A stretch of 7,781 nt of DNA, from positions 1 through 7,781 of the IMG/VR virus record IMGVR_UViG_2513020041_000001, one strand, 5' to 3'. This DNA is from a virus (lineage: Monodnaviria > Loebvirae > Hofneiviricota > Faserviricetes > Tubulavirales). The notes beneath the pieces were generated by a model. That model saw only the letters and a list, made by a program, of their open reading frames with translations, searched no databases and was not told the DNA's origin. Shown one piece after another: positions 1-7,781 of the stretch (positions within the stretch are counted from its first letter, which is position 1; each line of letters opens with the position of its first letter). Both the position numbers and the translations under genes were made by a program.

Positions 1-1269
1 ATGACTCCAACCAGTTCCGATCTGGTCAGAAATGCCGCTGAGGGCTCAGGCGGCGCAGCCGCCCTAGGTAGTATTGCGAAATGTTCTTCCCCCCCCCCTC
101 CGAAGGCAATGAGGGCCCAAAGATACCAAGCTCTTTCTCAGGCTCGGATCTGGTTAAAACCCTTGGCTGTCAAGGATCCCACCAAGCCTTACGGGTGGAA
201 ATTGCACCGCACGCAAGACTGCCGCTATAAGCGGATCGGCATCGGCGTCACCGTGCATAAAGACATCAAGCATCAGACCGCTTTTTACGGCGATGTAGCC
301 ACCTGTGGCTCCGTGTGGGCTTGTACCGTGTGCTCGGCAAAAATTCAGACTCGTCGACGTCCAGAGGTACAGCAGCTGGTCGATTGGGCTTACGAGAACG
401 ACTATCAGGTCACCATGATTACGTTCACGTTCCCGCATCTGGCATTTGATCGCCTGAAGGAACTGCTCGATGGCCAGAAACGCGCCTTTGAGATCCTCCG
501 CGGCGGTAGCCCATGGGTGAAGTTCAAGCAGCGTCACGGCCTTATCGGCTTTGTGCGCTCTCTGGAGGTCACTCACGGCGATAACGGCTGGCATCCTCAC
601 ACCCATGAGCTTTGGATCACCAAGGGGCTCACAGCCACGAATATGGCCACTTTCGAGAGCGGTATCCGCAAGCGGTGGCGGACTTCCTGCATCCAAGCTG
701 GTTTGCTCGATGAAACCTCGAAGGCGCAACTGTTCGCGTTCGATCTGCACTCGGTCGATTTTCAGTTTCAGGTGTCCACCTCTGACTACCTCGTCAAGAT
801 GGATAACGCGCGCAAATGGGGTGTCGATGCTGAGATGACGGCTCAAGCGTCAAAGGTTGGTGGTGATCGCGTCACGAAGACCATTCACCCCCATGAATTC
901 CTGATGCGTCGCGCACCTGGTGATGATGCCCGCTACCGCGAATACGTAACGGGCATGCATGGGAAAAGCCAGCTGTTCTGGTCTCAGCGCCTAAAAGACG
1001 CCTGCGGCGTAGAGCATGTGACTGACGAAGAGATTGCCAAGGAACAAACCGAAAAAGCGGATCTGCTAGCTCACCTGACCGACAGTCAATGGCGTGTCGT
1101 TCGTGGAAACGATGCCCTTGCTGAAGTGCTCGATGCTGCCGAGCTTGGTGGCTGGCCTGCTATCCGCTCCCTGCTGAAATCGCTTGGCTGCGAGATTCTC
1201 GAGACGGATTGTCATGATCCATTTTTCGAGGTCAATCGTGTTCTTTTCGCTCCAGACGAGCAGGTCTAG
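1..1269 (+). CDS. Rolling-circle replication initiator (HUH endonuclease, gII/RstA-like Rep), 422 aa
   Basis: Long ORF with the three HUH motifs in canonical order: motif 1 MITFTFP (nt ~415-435), motif 2 GWHPHTHELWI (nt ~589-621), motif 3 SDYLVKM with catalytic Tyr and Lys three residues on (nt ~784-801). It is the first gene of the unit, upstream of the ssb and coat genes as in filamentous phages. The N-terminal 36 aa are low-complexity (Ser/Gly/Ala/Pro) and include the C10 tract; the true start could be the internal Met at nt 109. Confidence 0.8.
   Translation: MTPTSSDLVRNAAEGSGGAAALGSIAKCSSPPPPKAMRAQRYQALSQARIWLKPLAVKDPTKPYGWKLHRTQDCRYKRIGIGVTVHKDIKHQTAFYGDVATCGSVWACTVCSAKIQTRRRPEVQQLVDWAYENDYQVTMITFTFPHLAFDRLKELLDGQKRAFEILRGGSPWVKFKQRHGLIGFVRSLEVTHGDNGWHPHTHELWITKGLTATNMATFESGIRKRWRTSCIQAGLLDETSKAQLFAFDLHSVDFQFQVSTSDYLVKMDNARKWGVDAEMTAQASKVGGDRVTKTIHPHEFLMRRAPGDDARYREYVTGMHGKSQLFWSQRLKDACGVEHVTDEEIAKEQTEKADLLAHLTDSQWRVVRGNDALAEVLDAAELGGWPAIRSLLKSLGCEILETDCHDPFFEVNRVLFAPDEQV
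1..1269. repeat. Direct repeat copy 1 (identical to 6513-7781): terminal redundancy of a 6512-bp unit
   Basis: Sequence 1-1269 matches 6513-7781 base for base on inspection, and the ORF track gives identical 422-aa translations and identical embedded ORFs for both copies. Confidence 0.95.
89..98 (+). repeat. C10 homopolymer tract in the 5' end of rep (encodes SSPPPP); second copy at 6601-6610
   Basis: Ten consecutive C residues counted at 89-98 and again at 6601-6610. Confidence 0.9.
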
Positions 1270-1426
1270 CAGCAGTTCTTTCGAGGACTTCGTCATATCG
1301 TTTGCTCCTTTCCAGCAGGTATTCCAATGCCTGCGTATGCGTGCAGTCCATCTCAACCTCAAGCATTTTGAGTTGAGTCCAGACTTCCTTTGAAACCGAG
1401 ATGTTTTTAAGCCGATCAGTGGCCAT
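1232..1426 (-). CDS. Ribbon-helix-helix (CopG/Arc-like) transcriptional regulator, 64 aa
   Basis: Minus-strand ORF MATDRLKNISVSKEVWTQLKMLEVEMDCTHTQALEYLLERSKRYDEVLERTAARPARLERKEHD. It has the RHH pattern of a short N-terminal beta-strand with alternating hydrophobics (RLKNISVS) followed by two helices (WTQLKMLEVEM, THTQALEYLLER), closely resembling CopG-type repressors. ATG is the rc of 1424-1426, with GGAG about 10 nt upstream on the minus strand. It is convergent with rep (38-bp 3' overlap) and divergent from the ssb gene. Confidence 0.55.
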   Translation of the reverse strand: MATDRLKNISVSKEVWTQLKMLEVEMDCTHTQALEYLLERSKRYDEVLERTAARPARLERKEHD

Positions 1427-1465
1427 GGGCCATTATCTCCATTTTTGTCCGATGAGTGGTGCGCA

Positions 1466-1571
1466 ACCCGACCAACGATCCGTAAAGGTCGGGTATTGAC
1501 CGGGTGTGTATTCGTGTTATCGTGTTTTCGTGTTGACGAACCATTCCCTTACACGATCCCGCGAAAACACG
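1466..1571. promoter_or_regulatory. Divergent regulatory region between the minus-strand RHH gene and ssb: hairpin, CGTGTT repeats, 10-bp inverted repeat
   Basis: 8-bp stem acccgacc (1466-1473) / ggtcgggt (1487-1494). Three CGTGTT direct repeats at 8-bp period (1513-1518, 1521-1526, 1529-1534). Perfect 10-bp inverted repeat cgtgttttcg (1521-1530) / cgaaaacacg (1562-1571) bracketing -35-like ttgacg (1533-1538), ending just before the ssb RBS aaagga (1575-1580). Confidence 0.4.
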
Positions 1572-1588
1572 CGAAAGGATACAACTCC

Positions 1589-1861
1589 ATGTCAGAAAAT
1601 ATCGTCGCAACCATTGAATTTACCGGCCTGAACAAGACCGGCACTTCCATGAAGTCCGGCACACCTAAGCCATGGTGGCGGCTTGGCGCGTACGTGAAAG
1701 TCCCCGGCCTGCTCCATCCGCAAGCTATCGAATTTTTCACCTCGGAAGTGACTCAGGTTCAGCCTGCAGGCAAGTACGAGGCTCCCTGCATCACTCGAAT
1801 TCAGGACGGAAAAATCACTGTTGAGCCTGATCTTTCTCAGCTCAAAGCGGTTCGCGCCTGA
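1589..1861 (+). CDS. ssDNA-binding protein (gV-like), 90 aa
   Basis: ATG at 1589 preceded by RBS aaagga (1575-1580). Small (90 aa) basic/aromatic-containing protein placed between rep and the major coat gene, the canonical gV position. The ORF-track extension back to 1445 lacks an RBS and overlaps the regulatory repeats. Confidence 0.6.
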   Translation: MSENIVATIEFTGLNKTGTSMKSGTPKPWWRLGAYVKVPGLLHPQAIEFFTSEVTQVQPAGKYEAPCITRIQDGKITVEPDLSQLKAVRA

Positions 1862-1965
1862 TGCCAGCGCTTGCTGATATGCCCGAGCTGGTATCAGCGA
1901 TCGTGCTTCTGTGGGCCACAGCTTGGTGCCTTAAACAAATACTTAATGCCATCAAAAAATTGTGA
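1861..1965 (+). CDS. Small hydrophobic protein, 34 aa (pVII/pIX-like minor coat candidate)
   Basis: ATG at 1861 overlaps the ssb stop (tgATG). Encodes MPALADMPELVSAIVLLWATAWCLKQILNAIKKL with a single hydrophobic helix, and ends 8 nt before the major coat start. Size and position match pVII/pIX of Ff-type phages. No own SD, so translational coupling would be required. Confidence 0.35.
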   Translation: MPALADMPELVSAIVLLWATAWCLKQILNAIKKL

Positions 1966-1972
1966 GGATCAC

Positions 1973-2230
1973 ATGCAAAAAGCTCTGTTTGTTCGCGCTG
2001 GAAATACTTGGTTCCGTCGCTCTGCAACTGTTGCCACTGGTGCGGCAATCATGATCGCTTCCGGTCTCGCTTCTGCTGCTGGTGAGACTCCTGAAGGCGG
2101 TGTCGACTCGGCGGCTGTCGTCGATCTGATCAAGGCTGCCGGTGTGACTGTCGGTGTTGTAGGTGTTGCTTGTATGGGTGTCTACCTGGCGCTGAAAGGC
2201 TTCCAGTGGGCTCGCTCCGCGATCAAGTAA
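1973..2230 (+). CDS. Major coat protein precursor (pVIII-like), 85 aa
   Basis: ATG at 1973 with RBS gagga (1964-1968). N-terminal signal-like segment ending ...ASGLASA, then a mature part with acidic N-terminus (ETPEGGVDSAAVVD), hydrophobic core (AAGVTVGVVGVACMGVYLAL) and basic C-terminus (KGFQWARSAIK), which is the defining pVIII architecture. Followed immediately by a strong intrinsic terminator. Confidence 0.8.
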   Translation: MQKALFVRAGNTWFRRSATVATGAAIMIASGLASAAGETPEGGVDSAAVVDLIKAAGVTVGVVGVACMGVYLALKGFQWARSAIK

Positions 2231-2241
2231 AGGGCGTACTC

Positions 2242-2276
2242 GCTCACTAGGGGGCTCAGTGAGCTCCCTTTTTTTT
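2242..2276 (+). terminator. Rho-independent terminator after the major coat gene
   Basis: Stem gctcact (2242-2248) / agtgagc (2258-2264) with a 9-nt GC-rich loop, followed by tccc and a T8 run (2269-2276). Confidence 0.7.
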
Positions 2277-2310
2277 GAGAATTTCCTATGGAAACTACGC
2301 AGGCGATCTT

Positions 2311-3459
2311 ATGGAACATAGAGCCATCCTTGGTTTACTTGTTGGCGGTTTGTGGTGCGTTCTGGATTCTTTTTCGCAGCTAGCTTCTGCGGCAGTTGAA
2401 ATTAACGTTGTACCTTTAGCAAATGGTACCTATGGCAAAGTTGTTGGCATTACAAATATTTCGCCATCAGGAAGCGCTACCGCCGTTGTTCAAGCTAAAG
2501 ATAAATTCGGTAATCTGGTTAATCGCTCTAGGACGCTTACCGCTAATCCGGCCAAATATGGCGCTTGGGCGCGTACTGCTATGCGCAGGATTCCCGCCGT
2601 TCAAATTGCCTTAGCTGCTGCTGCTGTTGCTGCTGGTTATTTGGTTACTCAAACTACTGATGAGTTTGGACAGGTAGGTTACGATATTTATAAACCCGGC
2701 TCTTCTTTGCCCGGGCTTGATGTTGAATGTCCTACTAACTCTGTATCTGTGCCTAATCCATCTGGTGTTGGCAACGTTCAGGCTTTTATCCCTACACCTT
2801 GCTATAACACTCGTTATTCAAACTACAGAGAATATTGGACTACTGAGCCATCTGCCGAACTGCAAGTGTGGGCTGGCTCAAATAGCCCTAATGTAGTCAC
2901 TCGTTGGCAATCTACATCTGTATCAATTCCACCCACACAGAAGCCTACGTATATTTATAAGCGCGGCATTAGCGCATCAAATCCTGAGAATAAACCTACT
3001 GTTCAGCGTGTTCCTGCTACAGATAGTGATTTAACTACTTGGGGTTTTCAGTCCCCTGACTCTGTTCAAGAAGCACCTGGGAAATTTCCAGATGTTTGGA
3101 ATCCCCTCCCGTGGGAAGAAACCGCTTCTGATGATGAGGTTGTTAACCCTCCGACTCAGCCCGGAGAAAGCACAGAAGATCCTGATTACGACCCCTGCGA
3201 AGGAGATTGTGCTGATTCTTCCGACCTCGATCATTCGGTTTTAGACCTCTCTTCATATCTCAAATGGGGGGAGGGCTGGATGCCTAGGCAGTGTCCCGCA
3301 CCGGTGCTTATTTACCAGTTCAACAACACGCCGGATGGGCAAGGTTGGTTCGATTTCTCTTACATATGCAGCGTTATGACTGATTTTGTATCCCCGTTCA
3401 TGCGAATTGCTGGCTTGTTCTTTTTCGTCCGCATTGTTGTAGGAGGTATGCGTGAATAG
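2311..3459 (+). CDS. Minor coat / adsorption protein (pIII-like), about 382 aa
   Basis: First gene after the coat terminator. N-terminal signal-like hydrophobic segment (MEHRAILGLLVGGLWCVLDSFSQLASA), an acidic Pro/Asp/Glu-rich linker (EETASDDEVVNPPTQPGESTEDPDYDP), Cys pairs and a C-terminal hydrophobic anchor (FMRIAGLFFFVRIVVGG). The ORF-track start at 2275 is a TTG inside the terminator T-run; ATG 2311 is preferred, but the start is uncertain. Confidence 0.6.
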   Translation: MEHRAILGLLVGGLWCVLDSFSQLASAAVEINVVPLANGTYGKVVGITNISPSGSATAVVQAKDKFGNLVNRSRTLTANPAKYGAWARTAMRRIPAVQIALAAAAVAAGYLVTQTTDEFGQVGYDIYKPGSSLPGLDVECPTNSVSVPNPSGVGNVQAFIPTPCYNTRYSNYREYWTTEPSAELQVWAGSNSPNVVTRWQSTSVSIPPTQKPTYIYKRGISASNPENKPTVQRVPATDSDLTTWGFQSPDSVQEAPGKFPDVWNPLPWEETASDDEVVNPPTQPGESTEDPDYDPCEGDCADSSDLDHSVLDLSSYLKWGEGWMPRQCPAPVLIYQFNNTPDGQGWFDFSYICSVMTDFVSPFMRIAGLFFFVRIVVGGMRE

Positions 3460-3739
3460 CTTGCTTAAGATTTTTGGCGTTGAATCAATCCGACACCTGG
3501 TCATCAAGACAATTTCCAGTCTCGGTATTGGGGTGATGAGCTATCAGGGACTTAATATTTTGCTTGGTATGATCACTGATCAAGTCATGCAAAACTTTAA
3601 CTCTTTGCCTGTGTCTGTTCTTTCCATCATGGGACTTGGCGGTCTCGATCACTTTATCAATATTGTTCTTTCAGCTTATTCGGCCCGCTTTGCCATGGCA
3701 TCCATTAAGAAATTTAGAATGATGGGCGCTGCTACATGA
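3452..3739 (+). CDS. Minor coat / membrane protein (pVI-like), 95 aa
   Basis: GTG start at 3452 with strong RBS aggagg (3441-3446), overlapping the pIII stop. The product is highly hydrophobic with multiple predicted TM segments; size and position (between pIII and pI) match gVI. Confidence 0.55.
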   Translation: MNSLLKIFGVESIRHLVIKTISSLGIGVMSYQGLNILLGMITDQVMQNFNSLPVSVLSIMGLGGLDHFINIVLSAYSARFAMASIKKFRMMGAAT

Positions 3740-4638
3740 TTCATTTAATTACCGGCGCACCTGGAACGGGAAAATCTCTGCTTGCTGTAGAGATTATTTT
3801 GGATAATTCATTATCTGAAAATCCGCGGCCTATTTTTTCCAACATCAACGGTTTGGACTTTGAGAAGCTGCGCTGCTTTCCTCTTGATAATCCTGAGGAG
3901 TGGCATACCTATCCAGTTGGTTCGCTGCTGGTAATTGATGAATGCCAACGCTATTTCCCACCTCGACCGAACGGGAGCAAGGTTCCGCAGAACATTGCAG
4001 AATTTGAAACCCATAGACACCATGGCCTTGACATCATTCTGTTAACTCAACATCCAACGTTTATTGATGCCAATATCAGAAAGCTTGTTGATCGTCATCA
4101 GCATGGGTTTCGTCCTTTTGGTAAAAAACGTCGGACTCTTCTGGAGTGGACAGGTTGCAATGACAATCCTGAGCCTGCGAAGAATGAATCTAATTCCTTG
4201 CAGAAGCGTAAGCCTTTTGATCCAAAGCTTTTTCAATATTACAAAAGTTCATCTCAGCATACTGATAAGGACCGTACGCCTTGGGCTAAAGTTCTTTTTC
4301 CTTTTGTTATGTTGGTTTTGGTTGTAGTTGCTTTCGGATTTGCATTTTATCGCTTAAGTCCGTCAAAGCCTGAATCGGTTAATTCTAAATTTGATAATTC
4401 AGTTAAAACGGTTGATAAACAGGCAGTCATTCCTACTGCTTCTTATGTAGGTTTTTTCCGTTCTGACAATGGCTTGCCTGCAACAGTGCTTGTTAAGGAC
4501 GGTTCAAATGGTTTCTACCGCGTTGATTATGATTCTTGGAATGTTGCCGGACCTCAGGTGAGCTTTTTTAAGGCAGATTCAACAACGCCCGTGCTTCGGG
4601 TTTCTTCATTAATTTTGGCAAAACTTATACAGGAGTAG
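3736..4638 (+). CDS. Zonula occludens toxin-like assembly ATPase (pI/Zot family), 300 aa
   Basis: ATG 3736 overlaps the upstream stop (ATGA). N-terminal Walker A GAPGTGKS, Walker B-like LLVIDECQ, an internal TM helix (VLFPFVMLVLVVVAFGFAFY) and a C-terminal periplasmic domain, which is the Zot/pI architecture. Confidence 0.8.
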   Translation: MIHLITGAPGTGKSLLAVEIILDNSLSENPRPIFSNINGLDFEKLRCFPLDNPEEWHTYPVGSLLVIDECQRYFPPRPNGSKVPQNIAEFETHRHHGLDIILLTQHPTFIDANIRKLVDRHQHGFRPFGKKRRTLLEWTGCNDNPEPAKNESNSLQKRKPFDPKLFQYYKSSSQHTDKDRTPWAKVLFPFVMLVLVVVAFGFAFYRLSPSKPESVNSKFDNSVKTVDKQAVIPTASYVGFFRSDNGLPATVLVKDGSNGFYRVDYDSWNVAGPQVSFFKADSTTPVLRVSSLILAKLIQE

Positions 4639-4681
4639 ACGGGGGAGGCGGGCGCTTGCGCACGACGCGCACGTCTACTCC
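4632..4681. promoter_or_regulatory. GC-rich nested inverted repeat spanning the Zot stop codon, upstream of the secretin gene
   Basis: Perfect 10-bp inverted repeat ggagtagacg (4632-4641) / cgtctactcc (4672-4681) enclosing an inner hairpin tgcgc (4657-4661) / gcgca (4667-4671). No T-run follows on either strand, so it is not a canonical intrinsic terminator. Confidence 0.4.
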
Positions 4682-4696
4682 AACCTGCTGACATTT

Positions 4697-5932
4697 ATGA
4701 AAAAACTGATCGCATTCACGTTTTTGATACTGTCTGGATTAGCTCACGCTGAAAACCTGACGCTTTCCTATGATCAAGTGCCCGTCACTCAGCTCCTAGT
4801 CGAAACCTACCGTAATCGACTTGAGAAATCATATGTCATTGACCCCAGCGTTGTTTCCAACAACAGTCTTGTTTCTATTAATGTTCGCGATCTTCCAATT
4901 GAGAGATTGGAATCTACTGTTGATAGCATCCTTAAAACTGCTGGTATCAATAAGGTAGTTGGTTCCGATGGGCTCATTCTTTTCAGCGCTCGCTCATATG
5001 ATTATGCAAACTCTCTCCCTCCCGTTCCAGCTTCTGTTGCTTCTCCTGGTATGGCATCGCTAGGCGCTGATCTTCCACCGGATATCCCTCTTCAAAATGG
5101 GAGTATTCCGGATAACTTCACCATTTTTCTTGCTCATAATCGGCCAACTTCTTTTTTACAGCCAATTGCCAATAAATTGCTTGGTACCAATTACGAACCT
5201 TCCGACCAGGTGTTTTTGTCGGGGGATGCCAAGCAGGTTGAAAAAGTGCGGTTCATCCTGGAGCAGCTCGACACCGCTCCGAATGAAATCATGGCTCAGG
5301 CTGTTGTTCTCGAGTTCTCAACCCAGCGTGTGAAAGGGTCCAGTTTTGAGATGGCAATCTCTGCTTTGTCCGGCCACCTTAAAATCGGTGTTGATTCCTT
5401 GCTCCCTGCCGGTGGGAATTTCATCAAGTGGTCTTCCACGGATCTGACTGCCGTCCTTTCTGCCGTATCCGGTGATTCTCGTTTTCATGTTGTTTCGACT
5501 CCAACGCTGCGCGTTGTTAGTGGTGGTACTGGTCGCCTGTTGGTTGGTCAGGAAGTGCCTACCCTGTCGTCTTCGTCTCTCGATAATTCAGGCAATGCGG
5601 TGCAGTCGATTGAGTACCGATCCGCAGGTGTGATCATGGAGCTGAAGCCCACCATTCTCCGTAATCGTATTGACCTGGAGCTGAATCAACAGATTTCCGA
5701 TTTCGCTCAAAACAATCTTTCTGGCATCGATTCTCCGACGCTGACTAAGCGTGAGTTGACCACCAAAATTTCGGCCCAGCCGGGGGAGCTGATTGTGCTT
5801 GGCGGGCTCGATCAGACGAAAAAAACAGATCAGAGCCGAGGCCTGTCGTTCCTTCCGTCCTTCATGGGCGGTAGCTCTTCAACTGACGCAGATACCCAGA
5901 TCCTGCTGGTTTTGCAGGTAACGAAAATATAG
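4697..5932 (+). CDS. Secretin (pIV/GspD-like outer-membrane export channel), 411 aa
   Basis: N-terminal signal peptide MKKLIAFTFLILSGLAHA. The C-terminal half carries secretin-domain signatures (VVSTPTLRVVSGGTGRLLVGQEVP, EYRSAGVIMELKPTI, GELIVLGGLDQTKKTDQSRGLSFLPSFMG, TQILLVLQVTKI) matching the conserved pattern of phage pIV and T2SS GspD. Confidence 0.8.
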   Translation: MKKLIAFTFLILSGLAHAENLTLSYDQVPVTQLLVETYRNRLEKSYVIDPSVVSNNSLVSINVRDLPIERLESTVDSILKTAGINKVVGSDGLILFSARSYDYANSLPPVPASVASPGMASLGADLPPDIPLQNGSIPDNFTIFLAHNRPTSFLQPIANKLLGTNYEPSDQVFLSGDAKQVEKVRFILEQLDTAPNEIMAQAVVLEFSTQRVKGSSFEMAISALSGHLKIGVDSLLPAGGNFIKWSSTDLTAVLSAVSGDSRFHVVSTPTLRVVSGGTGRLLVGQEVPTLSSSSLDNSGNAVQSIEYRSAGVIMELKPTILRNRIDLELNQQISDFAQNNLSGIDSPTLTKRELTTKISAQPGELIVLGGLDQTKKTDQSRGLSFLPSFMGGSSSTDADTQILLVLQVTKI

Positions 5933-5933
5933 C

Positions 5934-5961
5934 TTTACACGGTAATTACCGGGTCTATACT
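5934..5961 (+). promoter_or_regulatory. Candidate sigma70 promoter with an embedded 12-bp perfect palindrome (operator)
   Basis: -35-like tttaca (5934-5939) and -10-like tatact (5956-5961) with a 16-bp spacer; the perfect palindrome cggtaattaccg (5940-5951) lies in the spacer. It is followed by RBS aaggagg (5974-5980) and ATG 5989. Confidence 0.45.
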
Positions 5962-5988
5962 GGAGCCATATCAAAGGAGGCCGCTACC

Positions 5989-6159
5989 ATGGCAAATCAA
6001 TCCGCATCATCCGAAAAAATGCTTAACGTGAAGGTTCCCGAGGATCTCAAGCAGTCTTTTACGCTGGCTGTTGGGGCTCAAGATCAGACCGTTTCCCATG
6101 TCATCCGCGACTTCATGCGCAAATATGTCGCCCAACATGGTCAGGGGAAGCTGCTGTGA
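5989..6159 (+). CDS. Ribbon-helix-helix DNA-binding protein, 56 aa (absent from the ORF track)
   Basis: ATG 5989 with near-consensus SD aaggagg 8 nt upstream, stop TGA 6157-6159. Translation MANQSASSEKMLNVKVPEDLKQSFTLAVGAQDQTVSHVIRDFMRKYVAQHGQGKLL shows a beta-strand (LNVKV), helix A (PEDLKQSFTLAVGA) and helix B (QTVSHVIRDFMRKYV), the RHH fold pattern. Confidence 0.6.
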   Translation: MANQSASSEKMLNVKVPEDLKQSFTLAVGAQDQTVSHVIRDFMRKYVAQHGQGKLL

Positions 6160-6323
6160 ATATACTTCCGGTCACCCCTGCTTCTGCCGTGGCAAGCGCT
6201 GTCACGTGCCCTTCGTTTTCCCTTGACCCGTCCGTGGTCGTCCTCGCCCTTTTTCTGCCCTTTGTCCTTGTAGGGGCTTACTACCTTTTCCGGCTCGCCA
6301 AGGCTGATCTTCGTGGATTGTAA
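6156..6323 (+). CDS. Small single-pass membrane protein, 55 aa (absent from the ORF track)
   Basis: GTG 6156 overlaps the RHH stop (GTGA), with SD-like gggaag (6145-6150) 5 nt upstream. Translation MNILPVTPASAVASAVTCPSFSLDPSVVVLALFLPFVLVGAYYLFRLAKADLRGL has one hydrophobic helix followed by a basic C-terminus. Stop TAA 6321-6323 is followed directly by a hairpin. Confidence 0.45.
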   Translation: MNILPVTPASAVASAVTCPSFSLDPSVVVLALFLPFVLVGAYYLFRLAKADLRGL

Positions 6324-6325
6324 AG

Positions 6326-6374
6326 CCGGTTCTAGACGCCTGAATGGCTTCATCTTTCAGGTGGCTAGAACCGG
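6326..6374. promoter_or_regulatory. Hairpin: 10-bp perfect inverted repeat with 29-nt loop at the start of the intergenic region
   Basis: ccggttctag (6326-6335) / ctagaaccgg (6365-6374). It begins 3 nt after the stop of the small membrane-protein ORF. Confidence 0.5.
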
Positions 6375-6382
6375 AATCGATC

Positions 6383-6423
6383 TTTCTGTAGACCAAATTT
6401 CGTAGACGTACTTTTTCGTAGAC
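6383..6423 (+). repeat. Three iteron-like direct repeats, TTTC(T)GTAGAC
   Basis: tttctgtagac (6383-6393), tttcgtagac (6398-6407), tttcgtagac (6414-6423), spaced about 14-16 bp apart in the same orientation, upstream of rep. Confidence 0.55.
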
Positions 6424-6447
6424 AAAAAAAAGGCCCCATGAGGGGCC
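6424..6447 (-). terminator. GC hairpin flanked by an A8 run (T8 on the minus strand): terminator-like on the minus strand, or an origin/packaging hairpin
   Basis: A8 (6424-6431), stem ggcccc (6432-6437) / ggggcc (6442-6447), loop atga. Read on the minus strand this is a 6-bp GC stem followed by T8, the canonical intrinsic-terminator shape. On the + strand no T-run follows. Confidence 0.4.
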
Positions 6448-6512
6448 CTTGACACTCGTGAAGCCCCTTTCCCGGCAAGGCGCGGAGCTTCACAACGCAG
6501 GGATATTCTAGC

Positions 6513-7781
6513 ATGACTCCAACCAGTTCCGATCTGGTCAGAAATGCCGCTGAGGGCTCAGGCGGCGCAGCCGCCCTAGGTAGTATTGCGAAATGTTCTT
6601 CCCCCCCCCCTCCGAAGGCAATGAGGGCCCAAAGATACCAAGCTCTTTCTCAGGCTCGGATCTGGTTAAAACCCTTGGCTGTCAAGGATCCCACCAAGCC
6701 TTACGGGTGGAAATTGCACCGCACGCAAGACTGCCGCTATAAGCGGATCGGCATCGGCGTCACCGTGCATAAAGACATCAAGCATCAGACCGCTTTTTAC
6801 GGCGATGTAGCCACCTGTGGCTCCGTGTGGGCTTGTACCGTGTGCTCGGCAAAAATTCAGACTCGTCGACGTCCAGAGGTACAGCAGCTGGTCGATTGGG
6901 CTTACGAGAACGACTATCAGGTCACCATGATTACGTTCACGTTCCCGCATCTGGCATTTGATCGCCTGAAGGAACTGCTCGATGGCCAGAAACGCGCCTT
7001 TGAGATCCTCCGCGGCGGTAGCCCATGGGTGAAGTTCAAGCAGCGTCACGGCCTTATCGGCTTTGTGCGCTCTCTGGAGGTCACTCACGGCGATAACGGC
7101 TGGCATCCTCACACCCATGAGCTTTGGATCACCAAGGGGCTCACAGCCACGAATATGGCCACTTTCGAGAGCGGTATCCGCAAGCGGTGGCGGACTTCCT
7201 GCATCCAAGCTGGTTTGCTCGATGAAACCTCGAAGGCGCAACTGTTCGCGTTCGATCTGCACTCGGTCGATTTTCAGTTTCAGGTGTCCACCTCTGACTA
7301 CCTCGTCAAGATGGATAACGCGCGCAAATGGGGTGTCGATGCTGAGATGACGGCTCAAGCGTCAAAGGTTGGTGGTGATCGCGTCACGAAGACCATTCAC
7401 CCCCATGAATTCCTGATGCGTCGCGCACCTGGTGATGATGCCCGCTACCGCGAATACGTAACGGGCATGCATGGGAAAAGCCAGCTGTTCTGGTCTCAGC
7501 GCCTAAAAGACGCCTGCGGCGTAGAGCATGTGACTGACGAAGAGATTGCCAAGGAACAAACCGAAAAAGCGGATCTGCTAGCTCACCTGACCGACAGTCA
7601 ATGGCGTGTCGTTCGTGGAAACGATGCCCTTGCTGAAGTGCTCGATGCTGCCGAGCTTGGTGGCTGGCCTGCTATCCGCTCCCTGCTGAAATCGCTTGGC
7701 TGCGAGATTCTCGAGACGGATTGTCATGATCCATTTTTCGAGGTCAATCGTGTTCTTTTCGCTCCAGACGAGCAGGTCTAG
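6513..7781 (+). CDS. Rolling-circle replication initiator (second, identical copy of 1-1269)
   Basis: Identical 422-aa translation to the ORF at 1-1269, with the same HUH motifs. ATG 6513 has no obvious SD upstream (gggatattctagc), which adds to the doubt about the true start (alternative Met at 6621). Confidence 0.8.
   Translation: MTPTSSDLVRNAAEGSGGAAALGSIAKCSSPPPPKAMRAQRYQALSQARIWLKPLAVKDPTKPYGWKLHRTQDCRYKRIGIGVTVHKDIKHQTAFYGDVATCGSVWACTVCSAKIQTRRRPEVQQLVDWAYENDYQVTMITFTFPHLAFDRLKELLDGQKRAFEILRGGSPWVKFKQRHGLIGFVRSLEVTHGDNGWHPHTHELWITKGLTATNMATFESGIRKRWRTSCIQAGLLDETSKAQLFAFDLHSVDFQFQVSTSDYLVKMDNARKWGVDAEMTAQASKVGGDRVTKTIHPHEFLMRRAPGDDARYREYVTGMHGKSQLFWSQRLKDACGVEHVTDEEIAKEQTEKADLLAHLTDSQWRVVRGNDALAEVLDAAELGGWPAIRSLLKSLGCEILETDCHDPFFEVNRVLFAPDEQV
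6513..7781. repeat. Direct repeat copy 2 (identical to 1-1269)
   Basis: Exact duplication of window positions 1-1269, extending to the window end. Confidence 0.95.

Follow-up and report, generated by a model that had tools for sequence, protein, structure and literature searches.

We analysed a 7781-nt stretch of DNA (IMG/VR record IMGVR_UViG_2513020041_000001; 'the window', whose coordinates are used throughout) which contains the genome of a filamentous phage. Its replication genes and its assembly genes differ in base composition and, as judged from their relatives, in evolutionary history. The window consists of one circular unit of 6512 nt plus a wrap-around copy of the replication initiator gene rep: positions 6513–7781 (plus strand) are identical to 1–1269 (1269 nt), and the repeat starts and stops on the boundaries of the rep open reading frame (ORF). 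A tandem, biological duplication of rep was ruled out, as the independent contigs L002, L004, L005 and L006 close as 6512-nt circles, with 0–1 mismatches to the unit in the window and assembly overlaps of 30 or 55 nt. In 17 public assemblies, the same sequence was recovered independently as a contig of 6.5 kb. The window therefore represents one circular genome of 6512 nt.

The unit starts with rep (1–1269, plus strand), which encodes a rolling-circle initiator (Pfam Rep_1, 36.3 bits, cut-off 33.2; PHROG 11698, E=2.7e-140). The antisense gene RHH64 (1232–1426, minus strand) codes for a 64-residue protein resembling ribbon-helix-helix (RHH) regulators; the match to the MatP_C RHH family is weak (E=0.0056, below cut-off). 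The ssb gene (1589–1861, plus strand) encodes a single-stranded DNA (ssDNA)-binding protein of 90 residues (Pfam ssDBP, 28.8 bits, cut-off 27) and is the last gene of the GC-rich module in this direction. Two more genes of this type are found at the other end of the unit, both on the plus strand: orf56 (5989–6159) for a putative RHH regulator (weak match to RHH_9, 19.5 bits, cut-off 23.4; PHROG 28287, E=2e-8), and orf55 (6156–6323), a small ORF which gene calling has recovered from several independent assemblies of this genome. No Pfam or PHROG family was matched by orf55, and tblastn against the other loci gave no homologue. The intergenic region upstream of rep (6324–6512) contains a hairpin just after orf55 (6326–6374, 19-nt arms, inverted repeat I2). 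From the general organization of inovirus genomes, this region may represent an origin, packaging or terminator region.

The genes for the virion and its assembly, all on the plus strand, lie between these two parts. The first of them, orf34 (1861–1965), encodes a small hydrophobic protein and is assigned to the assembly module by position and synteny; size and position make its product a candidate pVII/pIX-like minor coat protein. The gene for the 85-residue major coat protein (1973–2230; Pfam Phage_Coat_B, 24.8 bits, cut-off 23.5; PHROG 2374, E=1.6e-15) is followed by that for a 382-residue protein (2311–3459; ATG at 2311 in a frame open from a TTG at 2275) which matched no Pfam family and which, by position and size, probably acts as the pIII-like adsorption/minor coat protein. 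Further downstream are the genes for a pVI-like minor coat protein (3452–3739; Pfam DUF2523, E=5.2e-17; PHROG 1242), for the Zot/pI assembly ATPase of 300 residues (3736–4638; Pfam Zot, E=2.3e-31) and for the pIV secretin (PHROG 1012, protein IV of M13, E=3.7e-95 for the whole protein). The last of these is composed of an N-terminal periplasmic part (codons 1–168, 4697–5200) and a C-terminal secretin domain (5201–5932; Pfam Secretin, E=2.3e-22, residues 258–386). Between the genes for Zot and pIV there is a GC-rich hairpin with 24-nt arms (4632–4681). Both this hairpin and the one at 6326–6374 may serve as terminator, packaging signal or origin.

This gene complement points to an Inoviridae-like filamentous phage (Tubulavirales) of the small Pseudomonas type. 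The Zot/pI ATPase is recognized with 109 bits against a Pfam cut-off of 20.3 and by PHROG 197 (E=6.8e-60). The order coat–pIII–pVI–pI is present, the coat protein is small and alpha-helical, and the gene order equals that of phage PMBT54 and of prophages. The 6512-nt circle is within the size range of inoviruses (about 5.5–10.6 kb) and encodes a rolling-circle initiator of the Rep_1 type. PMBT54 (OR047306; Inoviridae; hosts P. carnis and P. lactis) is described as a filamentous phage of similar size with a modular genome of 48.37% GC and a probably episomal lifestyle (PMC10534721). By gene content and comparison with PMBT54 (PMC10534721), the genome in the window would be packaged as ssDNA in a filamentous virion.

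Inoviruses ordinarily evolve by module exchange, and the closest relatives of the window indeed change from region to region. When the whole unit was compared with the GenBank phage collection (megablast, blastn), only PMBT54 was found, and only for positions 48–1852 (72% DNA identity). Single-protein queries (Rep, Zot) against IMG/VR gave no related loci, and alignment-based queries were used instead. PMBT54 shares with the window the proteins encoded by rep (70% amino acid identity), RHH64 (73%, ORF2 of PMBT54), ssb (90%) and orf56 (60%, ORF13, annotated as 'omega transcriptional repressor'). Its Zot protein is only 27% identical, its coat, pIII, pVI and pIV proteins gave no BLAST match to the window, and orf34 is absent. 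The metagenomic loci L147, L148 and L150 are related to the window in the same part of the genome (Rep 74–76%, ssb 88–89%); proteins with 33–56% identity to RHH64 are encoded by many Rep_1 inoviruses. Within this Rep clade (70–78% Rep identity, ssb 88–90%), three unrelated assembly cassettes are found, namely that of the window and contig L011, that of PMBT54, L147 and L148, and that of L150, which contains coatGP8 and DUF5455 proteins. Outside the rep block, only pIV (57%) and orf56 (73%) connect L150 to the window.

The assembly genes have a different set of relatives. In L008/L009, an element in a P. fluorescens/vlassakiae-like chromosome, the complete block is syntenic, with amino acid identities of 88% for orf34, 68% for the coat protein, 84% for pIII, 96–97% for pVI, 86% for Zot (P0001, the closest sequence in a large protein database) and 82% for pIV. 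Blastn homology of L009 is confined to 1854–5931. The replication protein of this element is of the unrelated Phage_CRI/G2P_X_C type and is accompanied by a helix-turn-helix (HTH) repressor; the ssb protein is only 34% identical. The two genes flanking L008 have exact or near-exact counterparts in the genome of a P. fluorescens strain, where their protein accessions follow each other, and L008 is therefore a Pseudomonas prophage. The same arrangement was found in two assemblies of a P. lundensis prophage (strain DSM 6252, NZ_JYKY01000025; L013/L014/L039; IMGVR_UViG_2663763376), where the syntenic assembly cassette has amino acid identities of 59–76% (orf34 66%, pIII 67%, pVI 68% in L013, Zot 59%) and, in L013, is again placed beside an unrelated Phage_CRI/G2P-type replication protein. 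Unlike the window, both elements are chromosomally integrated; their replication proteins belong to the Phage_CRI/G2P_X_C type and are accompanied by an HTH repressor, and the identity of the ssb protein is only 34–40%. L011 is related to the window in both parts and has its whole architecture: rep and ssb products are 99% identical (Rep 99.5%), those of RHH64 and orf56 97% and 91%, and those of the assembly genes 64–92% (orf34 78%, pIII 75%, pVI 87%, Zot 78%). The coat protein is 64–68% identical in L008 and L011, and the N-terminal part of pIV 61–83% in the relatives.

The positions at which similarity switches are discrete. Both junctions are sharp and coincide with gene boundaries. The left one (1854–1875) is located at the overlap of the ssb stop and the orf34 start (TGATG). 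As seen in alignment A3, PMBT54 and L150 match the window to the end of ssb and then diverge, while L009 shows no relationship up to this point and near-identity from there on. The right junction (5930–5960) is at the pIV stop codon, with L009 homology ending at 5931. In alignment A4, L009 and L013 diverge directly after this stop codon, while L011 and L150 share an ACGGTAA...TATACT motif and orf56. Directly 3' of the pIV stop and upstream of orf56, the palindrome ACACGGTAATTACCGGGT is found at 5937–5954. It is part of the motif ACGGTAA...GT.TATACT, which is conserved in L011 in front of the RHH gene and of which L150 has two copies. The palindrome resembles an operator or promoter for the RHH regulator.

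The first-pass annotation of this DNA had placed the module boundary between the coat and pIII genes (2230/2311). Homology shifts it to the ssb stop and orf34 start (~1859–1863), and orf34 and the coat gene therefore belong to the AT-type module. The rep block groups with PMBT54, L147, L148 and L150, the assembly block with L008, L009 and L013, and both with L011. These incongruent relationships and the discrete switch points are those of a mosaic genome and strongly support different evolutionary histories of the replication/regulatory and the adsorption/assembly modules. To this extent the annotation, which had proposed separate histories, was correct; its further suggestion of different origins was not borne out, as the named relatives closest to either module are elements of Pseudomonas. 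The genome is an undescribed relative of PMBT54 in its replication cassette and of Pseudomonas prophages in its assembly cassette.

The base composition of the window was analysed by segmentation and at individual codon positions. A GC-rich rep side and AT-rich pIII, pVI and Zot genes had been noticed by eye, and the difference is real. The GC content is 0.542 for 1–2230 and 0.445 for 2311–4638 (chi2=42.6, p=6.7e-11); at four-fold degenerate sites (GC4) it is 0.64 in rep and 0.30–0.31 in the genes for pIII and Zot. When the 6512-nt unit is split circularly at two points, the best solution delimits a low-GC tract at 2271–5200 (0.446 vs. 0.535). Its log-likelihood ratio (LLR) is 24.7, whereas 200 block shuffles gave 4.9 on average and 9.7 at most. 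With third codon positions alone (GC3), the low tract was 1932–5200 (0.379 vs. 0.594, LLR 45). The proposed comparison by windowed or segmented GC and GC3 thus separates the modules significantly; the k-mer profile, proposed alongside, does not. Tetranucleotide usage normalized for base composition correlated with r=0.46 between the modules and 0.32–0.39 between halves of one module, and is uninformative at the length of the window. The compositional heterogeneity is marked, yet not unique, as 7 of the 95 inovirus-sized contigs gathered here match or exceed that of the window.

Individual genes show the same contrast. The rep gene has a GC content of 0.557 and a GC3 of 0.615, and GC4 is 0.57 in ssb, 0.62 in orf56 and 0.59 in orf55. 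The most AT-rich gene is that for Zot (GC 0.420, GC3 0.352, GC4 0.30), followed in GC3 by those for pIII (GC 0.468, GC3 0.370, GC4 0.31) and pVI (GC 0.420, GC3 0.458). The final ~100 codons of the pIII gene are GC-richer (sliding GC3 0.58–0.60). The complete pIV gene has a GC and a GC3 of 0.485 each, with a GC4 of 0.34 in its N-terminal 168 codons, and is GC-rich again in its C-terminal 243 codons (GC4 0.56). High-GC third positions had been assumed for the region from rep through the coat gene. This holds for rep and fails for the coat gene, whose bulk GC of 0.53 is due to codon positions 1 and 2 and whose four-fold sites are T-rich (GC4 0.42, T frequency 0.52). The shift between the two types is mainly from C to T on the coding (plus) strand: T at third positions increases from 0.26 to 0.45–0.46, A only from 0.12 to 0.19. 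Uniform C-to-T deamination of ssDNA would fit the T-rich assembly genes and was rejected, as it cannot explain how rep and ssb, on the same strand, have escaped.

The difference in GC could be a by-product of protein composition, AT-rich codons being used by membrane or hydrophobic proteins, or the contrast could be an artefact of joining two phages during assembly. GC at second codon positions is in fact low for pVI and Zot (0.35–0.39), and the sequence stems from metagenomic assemblies. The contrast is, however, largest at four-fold sites (0.64 vs. 0.30), with 138 GC and 79 AT sites in rep compared with 126 and 270 in the pIII, pVI and Zot genes taken together (Fisher p=3.5e-14). Amino acid composition is therefore not the explanation. 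As the identical 6512-nt circle has been obtained from at least four samples and L011 shares the whole architecture, both versions of this explanation are refuted, and we give them practically no weight.

Gene function as such does not create the contrast. Across 24 Rep_1 inoviruses, the difference between GC3 of rep and GC3 of the Zot gene has a mean of 0.02 and is positive in half of them (12 of 24). The largest differences are those of the window (0.26), PMBT54 (0.23) and L011 (0.19). L147 and L148 also show a contrast between rep and the assembly genes. In L150, a member of the same Rep clade, it is small (GC3 of 0.60 for rep and of 0.55–0.62 for the Zot, pIV and pIII genes). The contrast thus depends on which assembly cassette is joined to the Rep_1 cassette.

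The synonymous contrast, the sharp junctions and the incongruent relatives are best explained if the genome is a recombinant of two cassettes which circulate independently among Pseudomonas-associated inoviruses. Cassette A (replication/regulation) would extend circularly from 5933 to ~1860 and comprise orf56, orf55, the intergenic region, rep, RHH64 and ssb, with a GC4 of 0.57–0.64. Cassette B (virion/assembly, ~1861–5932) would comprise orf34 and the genes for the coat, pIII-like, pVI-like, Zot/pI and pIV proteins, with T-rich synonymous sites (GC4 0.30–0.42), the conserved C-terminal secretin domain being the exception. The step in composition would be inherited with the cassettes and set by the assembly cassette attached, not by gene function as such. 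It may persist through continued reshuffling of cassettes between backgrounds that differ in composition, or through a substitution equilibrium specific to each cassette. We consider a two-cassette recombinant phage with an inherited compositional step to be probable (roughly 0.8).

Several results weigh against this explanation. The incongruence of the relatives rests on pairwise identities and distances at four-fold sites. The right break in GC3 is at ~5200, inside the pIV gene (LLR 44.7), and not at the homology junction at 5932 (LLR 30.5; delta-LLR 14), so that the recombination map cannot simply be read from composition. On the left, the break and the junction are compatible, the GC3 likelihood being flat from 1861 to 2311 (LLR 43.1 at 1861, 43.7 at 2230). 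Within the assembly module, there is a correlation between GC3 and the conservation of the proteins in L008, L011 and L013 (Spearman rho 0.65, p=2e-4, 28 windows of 40 codons within 2311–5200); part of the pattern therefore tracks constraint, not ancestry. The most AT-rich stretches are the fast-evolving ones, i.e. the N-terminal part of pIII, the C-terminal domain of Zot and the N-terminal part of pIV, with codons 201–240 of Zot as the extreme (GC3 0.17, mean identity 38%). The assembly modules of window type and PMBT54 type are unrelated, and both are AT-rich beside this Rep clade, which would be a coincidence under pure module inheritance. Four-fold sites are near saturation between relatives in both modules (four-fold divergence, p4, 0.38–0.70), and in the P. 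lundensis prophage the same assembly module has a GC3 of 0.46–0.61, with flanking host genes at 0.69–0.77. Composition thus follows the cassettes largely, not exactly. Because of the saturation there has been time for it to change, and the AT-richness is not the scar of a recent import.

These results are taken up by a competing explanation, according to which the contrast is actively maintained within one genome by a region-specific mutational or selective regime, regardless of where the modules came from. The window, L011, PMBT54, L147 and L148 have all retained it despite near-saturated four-fold sites, the shift is strand-asymmetric (T at third positions up by 0.20, A by 0.07), and GC3 tracks protein conservation within the module. 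Polarized third-position substitutions on the window lineage gave distinct equilibrium GC3 values, 0.70 for rep and ssb (95% confidence interval 0.52–0.86) and 0.38 for the pIII, pVI and Zot genes together with the N-terminal part of pIV (0.25–0.52), without any sign of convergence. The underlying counts are small (9–22 events per class), and at saturated sites parsimony cannot be relied upon, so these values are suggestive only; a first count of polarized substitutions had given small, non-significant numbers. Active maintenance is also at odds with the lack of a contrast between rep and Zot genes in most Rep_1 inoviruses, with the small contrast in L150, and with the much higher GC3 of the same assembly module as a chromosomal prophage. 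No mechanism is obvious either: in the virion every plus-strand gene is single-stranded to the same degree, and T-rich four-fold sites are seen even in the coat gene, which is highly expressed. We therefore regard active maintenance as unlikely, although it is the strongest of the competitors. Slightly more doubtful still is the specific claim that each of the two genome parts is at a stable synonymous equilibrium of its own (GC3 ~0.6–0.7 for rep and ssb, ~0.3–0.4 for pIII, Zot and the N-terminal part of pIV). If it were true, a region-specific, strand-asymmetric C-to-T mutational or selective regime would operate within the genome of a filamentous phage, going beyond the simple inheritance of a donor's composition. 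The regions might then differ in how far they are exposed as single strands in rolling-circle replication or in assembly, or the translation kinetics of assembly proteins inserted into the membrane might be under selection.

The assembly module could also be foreign, i.e. derived from inoviruses of AT-richer Gammaproteobacteria (Oceanospirillales/Rheinheimera-like hosts), with consequences for host range. Outside the Pseudomonas clade, the next relatives of the Zot, pVI and pIII proteins are indeed encoded by prophages of Thalassolituus alkanivorans, Bacterioplanoides pacificum and Rheinheimera riviphila (Zot 45–49% identity), which have a local GC content of 0.45–0.49 and a Zot gene GC3 of 0.44–0.50; for pIII, identity to marine prophages is 26–28%. 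The nearest relatives (59–97% identity), however, are all found in Pseudomonas chromosomes or Pseudomonas-type phages, the GC3 of the Zot gene in the window (0.35) is below that of the proposed donors, and saturated synonymous sites would not keep a donor composition. Nor is there a net flux from AT to GC on the window lineage as expected for amelioration: the assembly genes show 22 strong-to-weak (S>W) and 15 weak-to-strong (W>S) substitutions, with an equilibrium close to the present value (small counts, saturated sites). A foreign-origin scar is thus improbable, more so than either form of maintained contrast, although these distant relatives hint at a deep ancestry of the assembly cassette at lower GC. 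The contrast is old and linked to the modules, not the scar of a fresh transfer. The gene for the pIII-like, putative adsorption protein travels with the AT-rich cassette, which may have implications for host range.

The comparison with L011 reveals patterns within the modules. Sliding DNA identity steps down at ~1875 from ~0.86–0.95 to 0.63–0.72. Four-fold divergence is 0.08 in codons 1–250 of rep, 0.36–0.38 in the rest of rep and in ssb, and 0.55–0.64 in the assembly genes; in the intergenic region 6324–6512, identity is only ~0.69–0.71. The first ~750 nt of rep are 97–100% identical to L011, which indicates an additional, very recent recombination tract inside rep. Also within rep, a 230-codon ORF is present on the minus strand (154–846). 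It was rejected as a gene and is probably a compositional artefact, given that all relatives with a GC-rich rep have stop-free antisense stretches of 132–372 codons.

A second recombination tract, covering the C-terminal half of pIV and orf56, was considered because identity to L011 is 0.80–0.86 after ~5100. It was rejected, as four-fold divergence is 0.64 there too. Only 2% of the 243 C-terminal residues of pIV differ from L011, while 64% of the four-fold sites do. The higher identity is thus due to protein conservation, and the internal break is not a recombination scar. The N-terminal 168 codons have a similar synonymous divergence, with 17% amino acid differences. Purifying selection on the C-terminal secretin domain is thus extremely strong. 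The secretin gene further seems to be a separately mobile unit. Four distant relatives of the coat–pIII–pVI–Zot block (L040, L041, L042 and L068; Thalassolituus, Bacterioplanoides and Rheinheimera prophages and an IMG/VR contig) gave no tblastn match to pIV of the window, yet pIV is shared with L150.

Among known systems, PMBT54 resembles the window in its replication/regulation cassette and also in its compositional pattern, with a low-GC tract at 2751–6850 (0.446 vs. 0.532). It differs in having essentially unrelated virion and assembly genes and a longer genome (7320 vs. 6512 nt). Those passages of its description which concern GC content, mosaicism or recombination give the whole-genome GC only and mention no intragenomic heterogeneity (PMC10534721). 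The L008/L009 and P. lundensis elements resemble the window in the assembly cassette, with homology borders at 1854 and 5931 for L008/L009. Pf3 (NC_001418), a small episomal Pseudomonas inovirus, has a Zot-like protein with 38% identity over the ATPase domain; this is a distant relation in one gene, and DNA comparison revealed no cassette in common.

Structural gene sets of inoviruses are lineage-specific, whereas replication and integration genes cross lineages, replication genes being exchanged most often (Roux et al., 2019, PMC6813254). That study deals with the sharing of gene content, while the synonymous contrast and the exact junctions are described here for the lineage of the window only. 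Cassette exchange being well established for inoviruses, the finding is confirmatory rather than surprising, and the window is a clean example of modular recombination. It provides a coordinate-level case in which one Rep_1/ssb cassette is combined with three assembly cassettes, and one assembly cassette with two replication systems, one of episomal type and one found in integrated prophages. Because of such exchange, single-gene markers will mislead in inovirus taxonomy. The cassette assignments are useful for predicting lifestyle and receptor use of phages of dairy and food-spoilage Pseudomonas. A GC step, in turn, flags mosaicism, but neither maps the junctions exactly nor identifies a foreign host.

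One further contig is related to the P. lundensis prophage. L015, an ENA scaffold of 14,920 nt, contains two tandem copies of a P. lundensis-type inovirus, each complete from the HTH repressor to pIV, an arrangement that would fit either a tandem prophage or a concatemeric replicative form.

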